Sequence record: PQ657803.1
DNA: 64,000 nt
Strand: one strand, 5' to 3'
DNA from: Klebsiella phage Roth37
Shown here: one piece after another, positions 4,993 through 9,890 of the stretch
Layout: every line of letters starts with the position of its first letter
Numbering within the stretch: position 1 is the first letter of the stretch
Made by a program: the position numbers and the translations under genes
The notes under the pieces: generated by a model
What the model saw: the letters and a program-made list of their open reading frames with translations, nothing else
The model's database searches: none
Told to the model about the DNA's origin: nothing

Positions 4993-5768
4993 GTTGTCAA
5001 CCTTTAATTAGTGGAGTGTATGATTTCGTTTAGTTTGCATAATGATTTGGCCGTCTTTATGAATGAAGGCTAAATCTACGTCGTACACTTCTTTATAAGT
5101 CTTAATGAAGTGTTCAGCATCTGCAACGGTGAATTCGTTTACAATCTCGCTACTCATTACGTTTTCTTTTAACATGTTTTCGGTTTCCTTATAAAGTAAA
5201 GAAGCCGATAACGCTTTTTATAGAATCCCAATTTTTAAAGAGCAGTGTAGGGCGGGGGCAGACTATACTTGTTTCGGCCTTTCCGTTCGGGGTAGTCGGG
5301 GCTATGTTACCGCCTCCTGATACCTGACTACTAGTGAAACGCTTTCGTGTTTCCCGTTTCGTCTTGCCGCCCTACGAGATAAATAATAACACAATGGCGT
5401 TTAGCCGCAAGCGTATAATTGTAAAGAAGCGTAAAGAGAAAACAGGCCCACGACAGATAGGAAACGCACGCACGTGACACAATATTTAAAGAAAGTCAAC
5501 GAATATTTTTACTATTTTTCTTCAAAAGGGGTTGACAAAACCTATTTCACACGAGGTGAGGAGATCGCCCCATACCCGGTATGATTCATCGGCTTTTATC
5601 TAAAACCGCTTAGAATCGATTCTAGAGCGTTTTAGACCCTGTTAATAACTTATACAAAAAGCAAAAATGAAATTTAATTAGTTATCCACTAGACAAATGA
5701 TTATTTTTATGAAAACGCAAAATAATGCTTGCGTTTATTTTATGCTGTACTCCTGTTTTCCGGGCAAG

Positions 5769-5878
5769 TTATCCACAGCACAAAATAACTTGACAAGCTG
5801 AGAAGCGGTATAACGAGATATCCCCAGACTTATCCACAGGTTATCCTACTGTATATTTATACAGTATATTCCAGCAGC
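5769..5878. repeat. Inverted-repeat arm A with two perfect DnaA boxes (TTATCCACA) and LexA-box-like palindrome TACTGTATATTTATACAGTA
   Basis: Reverse complement of 5826-5878 matches 9803-9853 almost exactly. Confidence 0.8.
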
Positions 5879-6024
5879 GGTAATACTCTAATATACCCCT
5901 AGAACGCTCTATAACGCATTCTGAGCGCTTTAAATTTAGAGGCCATATTAAAGGCCATTGCTAGAGGGGCGCAGAAAAACAAAAAGCCCGCTCATTATAA
6001 GCAGGCTTTTAATTCGTTTGCTAA

Positions 6025-6264
6025 CTATTCCGTATAGGTAATGTTATCATGGTCAGTAAATGAAAACGGCGTTTCATCCGTACTCCATTCATCCCATAAT
6101 TTAGCAGACTCATGATTTCGCAATTCACTAATAGCGGGCAAAATATCACACTCGTGATTAGTGATAGGAGCGGCAAATTTCGCGTACTCCTCCGGGGTTA
6201 ATTCCACCTCATAGGTGAGATTAATAACCCTTTGCGTGCTAACTAATACACGTATCTTTTCCAT
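6025..6264 (-). CDS. hypothetical protein
   Basis: 79 aa; stop/start overlap with upstream gene. Confidence 0.5.
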   Translation of the reverse strand: MEKIRVLVSTQRVINLTYEVELTPEEYAKFAAPITNHECDILPAISELRNHESAKLWDEWSTDETPFSFTDHDNITYTE

Positions 6265-6611
6265 TATCGGAATACCGTTTCAATTGTTTCGCCGCTAGAG
6301 CATACCGACCCGCCGCGATAAAACAGGCGTTCGGTTTTATATTTGGTTAGCAGGTCATAGAGATCCAGATCATCGGAAAGCGGGTAAGACTCCCCCAGCG
6401 CGGAAACTGAAACAGGCTTACCCGCCACCAAATCACGGCAGATCAAAATCAGCAAAGGCCAACTAATATTGATAGGATCGCCACGCAATCCGATTTTAAG
6501 TGTAGCCACTTCATCAATATGCCTTGCATTCTGGCGGCTAACATATTGGATCACGGTTTCCATCGTTTTATAGTGCGCCAGAAAATATTTGTTTACATAG
6601 ATGTAAATCAT
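6264..6611 (-). CDS. hypothetical protein
   Basis: 115 aa, translationally coupled chain. Confidence 0.5.
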   Translation of the reverse strand: MIYIYVNKYFLAHYKTMETVIQYVSRQNARHIDEVATLKIGLRGDPINISWPLLILICRDLVAGKPVSVSALGESYPLSDDLDLYDLLTKYKTERLFYRGGSVCSSGETIETVFR

Positions 6612-7144
6612 AGATATACGACCCCGCTAACCTTCCAACCGGATTTTAAACCTTCCTCAATATGGAGGATAGTTTCAGCATCCGGGATATAGATAAACGT
6701 TTTCAATTCGCGCAGATTAATGACTGCCTTTCCGTCAACTATCTGGATGTAACCCAAATAGATTGCCCGCTCTAGAACGGAATGAAGGGGCGAACCACCA
6801 TTAACGAGGTTGCAGGAATGACCGGGCCAGTACATATAAAACGACCCTTCTACCCCAGCATTACAGTATTTTTCGTCGTCGTCTTCTTCCCAATCATCCT
6901 CGCCTAACATACTTTCGGCATGTTCGCAAGCCTTTTCCCAGGAAAGGGAATCGACGTCAATTCCACGACCTAAAAAATGAAGGTCAGTCCAGCCAGTACC
7001 GCAAACGTTAGTATCACATTTGAGGACGGCGGCGACTTCCTGAGACTCAATTCGCCCGCCCTCTAAATATAAACCTTCTTCCGCTTCTACCGTACAATTA
7101 ATGCCCGGTACGCAAGATTTCATATGAAACATGGTTTTCTCCAA
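6608..7144 (-). CDS. hypothetical protein
   Basis: 178 aa, acidic region, coupled. Confidence 0.55.
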   Translation of the reverse strand: MEKTMFHMKSCVPGINCTVEAEEGLYLEGGRIESQEVAAVLKCDTNVCGTGWTDLHFLGRGIDVDSLSWEKACEHAESMLGEDDWEEDDDEKYCNAGVEGSFYMYWPGHSCNLVNGGSPLHSVLERAIYLGYIQIVDGKAVINLRELKTFIYIPDAETILHIEEGLKSGWKVSGVVYL

Positions 7145-7185
7145 TAATGGGGGCGGCTAGAGATTCAGCCGCCGGGAAGGGGATT

Positions 7186-7680
7186 TTACAGCTTATCGCG
7201 GAAAGTATCAAGCCGGTTGTTTAGCTCTTTAATCGCGTCGGCGTGAATTTCGTCATACGTTGACACGATATCCGCCAGCTCATCCATAGTTAGCGAACTA
7301 ACAATAACGGACGTTTTCACCTCCAGCTTTTCCGGTTCCGGTTCCGCTGGTGGCGTATCTAAAAACGTTAGCGAGCCTAAGCTAACAAGGTATACTTCCA
7401 TTTCAGTTGCGCCGTTTTCGCAATCGATTTCAAAGGTACTATCACCAATACAGATATCAAAGCCATAGCCATATACCCCGATAATCCGCAAGGGGATTCC
7501 CAGCATATCGTCGGTGTCCGGGTAGCAGTCCCGGCGGTCAATCTGGCGAGCCAGATTATCCAAATTTTTAGGCTCGACGAAAATAGCATTTTTGCCGCGA
7601 TCGCCATTATCGCGCAGGTGATGCCAGATATCGGCAAGCGTCATCTTTTTACCTTCAAAAGTAGCGGTTAACCGTTCCAT
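7186..7680 (-). CDS. hypothetical protein
   Basis: 164 aa ORF. Confidence 0.55.
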   Translation of the reverse strand: MERLTATFEGKKMTLADIWHHLRDNGDRGKNAIFVEPKNLDNLARQIDRRDCYPDTDDMLGIPLRIIGVYGYGFDICIGDSTFEIDCENGATEMEVYLVSLGSLTFLDTPPAEPEPEKLEVKTSVIVSSLTMDELADIVSTYDEIHADAIKELNNRLDTFRDKL

Positions 7681-7745
7681 TTTTGTCTCCAGTTAGTTAG
7701 CAGGGTAATTATTATAGCGCCCCATTATAGAGGCGCTAGATATAA

Positions 7746-8711: not shown

Positions 8712-8783
8712 CTTCTGTTACTCCTTTGTTTGGCTGAGAATCTATTATAGCAAGATTCCCAGCTTTTTAGCAATCATTATTTT

Positions 8784-9122
8784 CTAGAAGCAGATACCAC
8801 GGCCCCGGCCTACCTCATCCCGATTTTCATCGAAAATGATCACGTTGGCATTGAACGTGCTACGGTTAACGATCATCTGTATGCCGTCCTTGCCCGGTTC
8901 CGGTTCCACCATAAATCCCCATGTACCGGAGTCAACCGCCACGGAATCAAAATCCTGATTCCGTAACACTGCCGTAACAGTACCCTCCTTTGCAAAGGTC
9001 ACACTGACACGGCATTCAATAGGCCGAACTTTTTCAGGGGTAACGATAGCCGGGGCGCTAACCTCCGCAAGCGCAGCACCTGAAAGCATAGCAAGGCCAA
9101 AACCAACAATAGCGAGTTTCAT
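8784..9122 (-). CDS. secreted/periplasmic protein with signal peptide
   Basis: Start adjusted to MKLAIVGFGLAMLSGAALA (signal peptide) with GGAG RBS; 112 aa. Confidence 0.55.
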   Translation of the reverse strand: MKLAIVGFGLAMLSGAALAEVSAPAIVTPEKVRPIECRVSVTFAKEGTVTAVLRNQDFDSVAVDSGTWGFMVEPEPGKDGIQMIVNRSTFNANVIIFDENRDEVGRGRGICF

Positions 9123-9266
9123 AACATTCTCCAGTTTTTGGGGTTGTTCCCGTTCAAGAGATCGCATTATGGCGGAATCTAATTTGATTGTCTACTACTA
9201 AAAATAGTAGTTGCTTCCCACTAGGGTTATGTTATTATTACTACTCCAAACAAAGGAGATCGAAAA

Positions 9267-9380
9267 ATGGCTTTTTCAATGTTGGCGCTCGGTTTAGTCG
9301 GTTCTATGATGGTTTTGGGCTTTATCGCTTTTTGCGGCTATGCCCTCTATGATACCTTGTTTAATAAGGAGGCTTTTTAA
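9267..9380 (+). CDS. small hydrophobic peptide (37 aa)
   Basis: AAGGAG RBS; single TM segment; TAATG overlap with next ORF. Confidence 0.45.
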   Translation: MAFSMLALGLVGSMMVLGFIAFCGYALYDTLFNKEAF

Positions 9381-9550
9381 TGAGAACTTTGCGCGGTGGT
9401 AGTCCCAAAAGCCGTAGCCACAATACTTACCAATTGAACGTTGTTCGTGATGGTCAGAAGAAAGGCGGTGACGGTGCCGGCGGTGAGTGGGGTTTTCGTG
9501 TCATCATGGTTATTATTATGACCCTAGTCTTTTTGCAGAGCTGCCAATGA
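9380..9550 (+). CDS. small protein (56 aa), Gly-rich with C-terminal TM
   Basis: Translationally coupled (TAATG) to upstream peptide. Confidence 0.4.
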   Translation: MRTLRGGSPKSRSHNTYQLNVVRDGQKKGGDGAGGEWGFRVIMVIIMTLVFLQSCQ

Positions 9551-9690
9551 TACTTACAATCCTATTTATTAGCTTGCTATGTATTCTGCCCGGCCTGCTG
9601 GCGCTAGAGGTCTGGTCACGATCACCGGTTGACGCGGAGCGCGAATTAGAGCGCGAAAAAGCAAAGCGTGACGGCTGCCCGTTGCTATAG
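9546..9690 (+). CDS. small membrane peptide (48 aa)
   Basis: ATGA overlap with previous ORF; hydrophobic N-terminus then charged tail. Confidence 0.4.
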
Positions 9691-9732
9691 GGCGGCTTTT
9701 CCTCCTCAGCCCAATTTACCCCTCCTTTAATA

Positions 9733-9890
9733 CCCGCCCCAAATTTAAATCGCTTAGAGCGCGTTCTAGAGCGCTTAAAATCGATATCAGCAGAAAGTGT
9801 TGCTGGGAAATACTGTATAAATATACAGTAGGATAACCTGTTGATAAGTCTGTTGATAACTCGCTACCGATCGATTGAGGCGTCAAGCGA
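9733..9890. repeat. Inverted-repeat arm B with palindrome TACTGTATAAATATACAGTA and three TGTTGATAA (DnaA-box-like) sites
   Basis: Direct sequence comparison with arm A; ~46 bp near-identical core plus weaker flanks. Confidence 0.8.

Follow-up and report, generated by a model that had tools for sequence, protein, structure and literature searches.

The window analysed here, a stretch of 64,000 nucleotides from Klebsiella phage Roth37 (PQ657803.1), contains two inverted arms that bracket a block of genes, and each arm combines DnaA boxes with a 20-bp palindrome resembling the operators of the host SOS repressor LexA. Using positions 5400-10300 as a megablast query, we matched 417 phage records, the best of which were Klebsiella T5-like phages at approximately 95% identity, and by this homology the window is T5-like phage DNA of Sugarlandvirus (Demerecviridae). 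In phage Sugarland, whose positions are converted to those of the window by subtracting 89, the counterpart of the locus lies to the right of dmp, A1 and A2, inside a 10,138-bp terminal repeat predicted by PhageTerm that covers both arms (Sugarland 1-10138); transferred to the window, this repeat ends at about 10049, inside a series of 35-nt repeats. Judged by this match, the locus belongs to the pre-early, first-step-transfer DNA in the left terminal repeat of a T5-like phage, as an initial annotation of the same DNA, made from its letters alone, had assumed. The features discussed below are collected in Table 1.

Table 1. Features of the locus, in window coordinates (IRC, IRD, IRD' and IRC' are the T5 inverted repeats C, D, D' and C').
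Feature	Position	Strand	Remarks
LexA-type box, arm A (A2-proximal)	5847-5866		TACTGTATATTTATACAGTA; 27.83 bits; 19/20 to consensus
LexA-type box, arm B (injection-stop-proximal)	9811-9830		TACTGTATAAATATACAGTA; 27.83 bits; identical to T5 9330-9349, palindrome D
Consensus DnaA box, outer arm A (IRC equivalent)	5769-5777	+	TTATCCACA; position fits the T5 IRC box
DnaA-type box pair, 3 bp spacing (IRD equivalent)	5818-5838	+	ATATCCCCA-gac-TTATCCACA
DnaA-type box pair (IRD' equivalent)	9839-9859	-	TTATCAACA-gac-TTATCAACA
DnaA-type box (IRC' equivalent)	9912-9920	-	TTATCAACA; 101 nt from box start
Arm A inner extension	5867-5954		motif CGCTCTATAACGC...GAGCGCTTTAAATTT; 78% repeat pair, alignment
Arm B inner extension	9724-9810		AAATTTAAATCGCTTAGAGCGCGTTCTAGAGCGCTTAAAAT; repeat search, alignment
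A2 gene	3632-4036		
Imperfect 38-bp palindrome	5599-5636		TCTAAAACCGCTTAGAATCGATTCTAGAGCGTTTTAGA; third copy of the arms' inner-extension motif; placed like T5 inverted repeat B
Intrinsic terminator, end of minus-strand gene block	5982-6010	-	13-pair stem, then T run; annotated in Sugarland
Six pre-early genes (79, 115, 178, 164, 321 and 127 aa)	6025-9167	-	block inverted relative to T5
178-aa gene	6608-7144	-	
DUF7566 gene, 321 aa	7746-8711	-	
Small hydrophobic peptide genes, two or three (37, 56 and 67 aa)	9267-9690	+	last two overlap
Terminator-like hairpin ending the small plus-strand genes	9679-9696	+	
Three tandem 35-nt repeats	9953-10057	+	AAATRCGAATCATTCTCATTCGCATT...; equivalent to T5 direct repeats C
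At least eight copies of ATGTGCAAATCCGA	10072-10648	+	equivalent to T5 direct repeats D

A repeat search recovered the arms at 5811-5876 and 9801-9866 (66 nt, 89% complementary) together with a second inverted pair at 5905-5954 and 9724-9773 (50 nt, 78%), and a MAFFT alignment of the reverse complement of 5760-5960 with 9715-9925 showed about 200 nt of similarity around a nearly identical core. The near-identical inverted repeat of the initial annotation was thus recovered, as was its placement around genes at 6025-9690; the weaker similarity that it had seen beyond the repeat is present too, but runs inward, toward the bracketed genes, and not outward. DnaA boxes of sequence TTATCCACA start at 5769 and 5830 (5770 and 5829 had been given at first) and boxes of sequence TTATCAACA start at 9839, 9851 and 9912 on the minus strand, which leaves the earlier count of two boxes in arm A and three in arm B intact. 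The latter sequence has four matches in the window against 0.81 expected, and three of them fall within 82 nt. Pairs of boxes 3 bp apart have the same arrangement in all T5-like loci compared, and with one clear box in each outer part the window has six clear boxes in total, against eight in T5.

In the annotation of T5 (AY587007), the inverted repeats C (6022-6060), D (6112-6152), D' (9332-9372) and C' (9424-9462) are listed together with a "palindrome D" at 9330-9349, within inverted repeat D'. The sequence of this palindrome, TACTGTATAAATATACAGTA, is that of the arm B box of the window, and a second T5 copy, CACTGTATAAATATACAGGG, lies where inverted repeat D ends (6135-6154). In 25 T5-like phages, the element has been described as 131-bp repeats with eight DnaA boxes paired 3 bp apart, the second pair (IRC/IRC') lying about 52 bp past the first in the T5 family and part of IRC being absent from some types (Davison, bioRxiv 10.1101/866236). 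The same preprint, which places the T5 origins centrally, proposes that the paired boxes assemble a host nucleoprotein complex and that membrane-bound DnaA stops injection, in agreement with the initial expectation of DnaA boxes and inverted repeats at the T5 injection-stop region. From their sequence and layout, the arms of the window are the Sugarlandvirus version of the T5 IRC-spacer-IRD and IRD'-spacer-IRC' elements.

For the comparison of the palindromes with host SOS boxes, we used a symmetrised LexA matrix built from ten E. coli SOS operators from the literature, each of which is present verbatim in MG1655 DNA (upstream regions of recA, lexA, sulA, umuD, uvrB, recN, uvrA/ssb and tisB). 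Both boxes of the window score 27.83 of a maximum of 29.42 bits and outscore all ten genuine operators used (17.6-26.9 bits; 13.2-25.9 in leave-one-out scoring), while the next best site in the 64 kb reaches 11.6 bits and the maximum over 30 shuffles is 15.6. A resemblance of 18-19 of 20 positions to the LexA consensus had been claimed at the outset, and both boxes match at 19. The pattern CTGT-N8-ACAG occurs in the 64 kb only at the two box positions, both with an A+T-rich centre; the bare CTGT-N8-ACAG count is not significant (0.77 expected, 22 of 100 shuffles reaching two), so that the significance of the boxes comes from the full 20-mer score. By its sequence, the palindrome is a near-optimal LexA operator. 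LexA would very probably bind the box in vitro and would probably occupy it during infection, and we put the chances that this occupancy is under selection at even or marginally better.

The box was followed through 39 IMG/VR loci that were chosen only by A2 homology (63-99% identity), without selecting on the motif. Nearly all of these contain two copies, and the loci with a single exact copy also carry a near-miss second one; the context is always DnaA box-gac-DnaA box-GG-TTATCC-box, and the intermediate lineages reached via A2 homologues have the same arrangement. In each of 30 non-redundant loci, the score of the arm B box falls in the range of 24.7-27.8 bits (22 of the loci reaching 27.8), and that of the arm A box in the range of 16.7-27.4 bits, mostly at 22.3. 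Relatives in Aeromonas and Vibrio, whose A1 is 33-35% identical, keep CTGTAT-N4-ATACAG beside DnaA boxes, with GGAT, AAGC/GCTT or ATCC as the centre: Aeromonas phage AhP_Mru1 has TACTGTATGGATATACAGGG and CCCTGTATGCTTATACAGGG around a 1.6-kb block, Vibrio phage D239 has TACTGTATATCCATACAGCG, CACTGTATATCCATACAGGG and CACTGTATATTTATACAGGA, and Vibrio phage Gary has CACTGTATATTTATACAGGG and TACTGTAAAGGTTTACAGTA. Most of these distant sites are found at most about 30 nt from DnaA-type boxes, upstream of A2 and in inverted two-arm arrangements. The palindrome is therefore kept in close and in distant T5-like relatives.

Over 64 distinct 100-mers, the information per column is highest in CTGTAT/ATACAG, with the DnaA boxes next, and variation is found in the four bases of the centre and in the outer dinucleotides. 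Twelve of the 26 distinct box variants are intact, 12 are changed in one half only and one is changed symmetrically; the orientation of the central W differs from phage to phage, in keeping with a symmetric dimer. A hairpin as the conserved feature was considered and rejected, the half-site changes being one-sided without covariation. Because changes are so much more often one-sided than compensated, the conservation pattern points to a site for a symmetric protein dimer with fixed specificity rather than to a hairpin or an unwinding element. Outside the Demerecviridae, Pseudomonas phage pf16 (KU873925, Chakrabartyvirus) has no LexA-type box near its A1 homologue. This homologue (6842-8434, 47.6% identical) lies in a gene-dense, mid-genome setting and is more similar than are the A1 proteins of the T5-like phages of Vibrio and Aeromonas.

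Between the arms, the small plus-strand genes had been annotated as three membrane peptides; their hydrophobic segments are present and two of them are annotated as transmembrane in Sugarland, but the third is unannotated there and uncertain. The small open reading frames at 9380-9550 and 9487-9690 overlap in different frames. The orientation of the larger genes was compared between the window and T5 (L002), loci L003-L041, L054, L056 and L057. In the window, in Sugarland, in IME260 and in a separate lineage (L056), the DUF7566 and 178-aa genes share the strand of A2, and T5 and about 30 Tequintavirus and Epseptimavirus loci have them on the other strand with their order reversed. The block has thus been inverted during the history of the family, consistent with recombination between the inverted arms. 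A comparison aimed at breakpoints inside the box/DnaA core is ambiguous: the inner flank of window arm A resembles the T5 arm B flank more (0.76 versus 0.60), and the arm B flank is not closer to the T5 arm A flank (0.60 versus 0.70). The DUF7566 protein is the sole gene product of the variable block common to the whole family and matches T5 from about 7136 (58% over the best segment), in the ORF011/ORF012 region; T5 gene 011 is reported to be toxic and unclonable in E. coli (2026 preprint).

To the right of arm B, the 35-nt repeats and the copies of ATGTGCAAATCCGA occupy a gene-free stretch of 1.6 kb (9690-11275), and the DnaA consensus TTTTGCACA is contained in two of these copies (10199 and 10280). 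To the left of arm A, a 19-mer of the 38-bp palindrome, CTAAAACCGCTTAGAATCG, is identical in Vibrio phage D239 (11309-11334 of its locus, L043), the A1 of which is 33% identical, and copies related to this palindrome at 5899-5946 and 9743-9780 form the inner extensions of both arms; the conserved non-coding motif is probably another protein-binding site. Among the database records, PP355766.1 (Klebsiella phage vB_Kpn_AM_K4, 288,685 bp) has a 96%-identical copy of the locus at 33448-38325 and three matching places in all; the record exceeds a Sugarlandvirus genome in length more than twofold, and its assembly may be concatenated or mixed.

The two arms do not appear to weigh equally. Published primers map the T5 "hegG to 017" deletion to 5389-9081, which removes IRC-spacer-IRD with its box and keeps palindrome D, and the deletion mutant survives, forming small plaques. 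The two arms thus need not pair, and since the mutant lives without arm A, arm B would be the functional core. Arm B lies directly beyond the terminators of the last pre-early unit, and in T5 its box is about 290 nt to the left of the calculated shear point at 9618. Taken by its position in the sequence, arm B is compatible with the T5 injection stop signal (iss), the cis-acting site that makes the incoming DNA wait for the synthesis of A1 and A2.

In vivo, T5 injection halts without protein synthesis, and in FhuA proteoliposomes it runs to completion, a difference that implicates a host factor in the pause. The first 8% of the genome, including the arms, enters before any phage protein exists, so that only host proteins can occupy the arms at that stage. 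We propose that each arm acts as a composite docking element, made of a DnaA pair 3 bp apart, then GGTTATCC, then the 20-bp LexA-type palindrome, on which a LexA dimer and DnaA would settle side by side as the DNA comes in. The resulting nucleoprotein block would be stable and independent of promoters, and it would sit where the pre-early transcription units have their outer edge, mattering chiefly at the injection-stop-proximal arm B. Its most likely task would be to help in holding or insulating the boundary that separates the DNA already injected from the DNA still to come. The block might be part of the pause complex itself, or it might be a roadblock that stops host RNA polymerase from running past the stop and pulling DNA with it. 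That the element is a docking site for host LexA coupled to DnaA boxes at the injection-stop boundary has, on the sequence comparisons, about an even chance of being right; a barrier or pause role of the LexA-DnaA complex is a more tentative suggestion, which we regard as possible but doubtful. More speculative still, and unlikely, is a scheme in which LexA and DnaA are the long-sought host factor of the T5 pause, clamping arm B on entry, and in which the destruction of host DNA driven by A1 activates RecA and leads to LexA cleavage within minutes, timing the second-step release; if this were true, a host damage signal would serve as the clock or checkpoint for committing the other 92% of the genome.

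Several points weigh against a role for LexA at the stop. The binding of a protein on the cytoplasmic side is not in itself enough to account for the halt in DNA entry, and without a convincing promoter the classical action of LexA, promoter occlusion, has no obvious target. Arm A is dispensable in T5, as the viable deletion mutant shows, and arm A boxes are degraded in several phages (CCTTGT, ACAAGG). The LexA motif is the same in all known hosts of the family, and a phage protein with the same specificity is possible. T5 also plates on recA strains, so that LexA cleavage is not essential.

The alternatives to a LexA-DnaA docking site differ in what they make of these observations. Were the box a classical SOS operator, LexA would repress a promoter firing through it or beside it and so control a non-coding transcript or read-through into adjoining genes in response to DNA damage or to the breakdown of host DNA by A1; the top operator quality of the box suits this, and terminators 120-150 nt inward of each box would allow short transcripts. 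A consensus scan, which an atypical promoter could escape, gave no convincing sigma-70 promoter over either box: the match at arm B, running from 9847 to 9820 with its -10 (TATATT) in the box and its -35 in a DnaA box, is weak at 9/12, and the arm A equivalent falls below the threshold. Promoter overlap was rejected on hand inspection of the flanks in about 20 phages, where the conserved TAGAAT/TATATT and TTGACA hexamers have no partner at 16-18 nt, and a -10 of fixed direction is not conserved, as the centre is asymmetric (TATATT versus TATAAA) and flips between phages and arms. The three characterised T5 pre-early promoters lie away from the boxes, the inversion of the block alters what lies downstream of each of them, and a search of 5200-11300 against Rfam gave no family at gathering score, with sub-threshold matches only on the terminator (5980-6060). 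Because a convincing or conserved promoter is missing, the T5 promoters are elsewhere and Rfam returned nothing, classical SOS repression of a gene by the box is unlikely. A purely structural role, as a cruciform or hairpin, or as an AT-rich unwinding element opened by the adjoining DnaA, that obstructs passage through the tail or channel, appears very unlikely. A near-perfect palindrome of 20 bp and 75% A+T beside DnaA boxes is indeed reminiscent of an origin layout, and the region is rich in other palindromes, but CTG/CAG is invariant and the A+T centre variable (GG/CC in Vibrio and Aeromonas), the opposite of an unwinding element, the one-sided changes described above show that stem complementarity is not conserved, and linear first-step DNA with a free end would disfavour cruciform extrusion. 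We give still less credit to the view that the arms are kept mainly as substrates of homologous recombination, flipping or exchanging the pre-early cassette with the palindrome as a passenger. The cassette is inverted between lineages and varies widely in content and length, from 1.6 to 4 kb (cf. Davison, bioRxiv 10.1101/866236), which speaks for this view; recombination, however, needs only similarity, which leaves unexplained why LexA half-sites and DnaA boxes are the best-conserved columns and why the half-sites survive at 33% A1 identity, and phages that lose or degrade arm A retain an optimal arm B box.

A phage-encoded protein is the main alternative: the palindrome would be the site of A2, alone or with A1, which would release or cut the paused DNA there, its likeness to a LexA operator being a coincidence or competitive mimicry. 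All phages with the box have a conserved A2; it is a small protein required for second-step transfer and labelled as a DNA-binding protein in PHROGs, and A1/A2 have been proposed to act on a palindrome in this region (Davison, bioRxiv 10.1101/866236). Its AlphaFold model is confident and all-helical (predicted local distance difference test, pLDDT, 84), with a small N-terminal helical bundle that could be a helix-turn-helix. On the other side, the half-site stays CTGTAT while the Vibrio A2 falls to 40-47% identity, when a co-evolving pair would more likely drift; A2 has no detectable similarity to LexA or to solved DNA-binding proteins; the adjoining sites serve a host protein, DnaA; and a chance match of six half-site positions and the spacing to the site of an abundant host repressor has a probability of about 1%, a rough estimate taken over a few dozen palindromic host motifs. 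We consider this explanation unlikely. A LexA-like winged helix was also considered for A2 and rejected, the model being all-helical, with no match in the Pfam copy searched, no sequence relative in the PDB and no Foldseek hit better than an E-value of 1.5. The fold of this essential DNA-binding protein appears unsolved.

Two-step injection of T5 has been known for more than 50 years, and the sole host candidate named so far is DnaA, itself proposed from sequence. A LexA docking site would add a second and very specific host candidate for the stop at 8%, the role of which is testable with standard host strains and present T5 engineering methods. It would also be an unusual use of LexA, in a strictly lytic phage, with no evident promoter and coupled to DnaA; should the box prove inert, it would still offer a clear case from nature of an optimal operator that is maintained on other grounds.

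The initial annotation had held that a LexA-type operator at this place was undescribed, and a link between LexA or SOS and T5 was not found in the accessible literature, although Heusterspreute 1987, Wang 2005 and Davison 2015 might mention LexA. Neither LexA nor SOS figures in the Davison analysis of the element (bioRxiv 10.1101/866236), in the 2023 BF23 paper or in the April 2026 preprint on T5 pre-early genes, and a June 2026 PNAS paper does not mention SOS and describes the injection stop signal without naming LexA. The inverted repeat, the DnaA boxes and the palindrome as such are thus already known, and what appears to be new is the LexA reading and the family-wide conservation.

Compared with the T5 repeats, the window has the same position in the left terminal repeat, the same two-arm inverted layout round a variable gene block and the same DnaA pairs 3 bp apart; the distance of 101 nt from the box start to a DnaA box is also that of the second IRC' box in T5, and the arm B flank GGATAACCTG..GATAAGTCTGTTGATAAC is common to both. 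It differs in that both of its boxes have the full TACTGT...ACAGTA, where the T5 arm A copy has CACTGT...ACAGGG, in the reduced IRC part of arm A and in the inverted gene block. In published descriptions of T5 the palindrome is anonymous, and DnaA, IHF and FIS are named in them but LexA is not.

With the chromosomal SOS boxes (recA, lexA, sulA, umuDC, uvrA, uvrB, recN, tisAB), the phage boxes share the 20-bp dyad TACTGTATATATATACAGTA, and the variants tolerated in phages, CTGTAC, ATCCAG and ACACAG, are also found in real SOS operators. Whereas the chromosomal boxes overlap promoters and repress a defined gene, those of the phages have no convincing promoter, are fused to DnaA boxes and are more uniform, with CTGTAT nearly invariant. 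LexA operators also occur on mobile elements, among them coliphage 186 (tum), CTXphi (rstA), Bacillus phage GIL01, colicin operons and integron integrases, and there too the host SOS repressor is borrowed through a consensus operator. Those carriers, however, are temperate or plasmid-borne, and their operator governs a promoter that decides on induction, on the release of a toxin or on the expression of an integrase; the present carrier is obligately lytic and has its site in non-coding DNA, where the segment injected first has its edge. Clusters of DnaA boxes, finally, act as anchors or transcription blocks at oriC, at datA and in the DnaA-box block of the asnC transcript. The arms resemble these clusters in having closely spaced boxes in fixed pairs, and they differ from them in belonging to a phage element that has no replication origin and that is coupled to a site for a second host factor.

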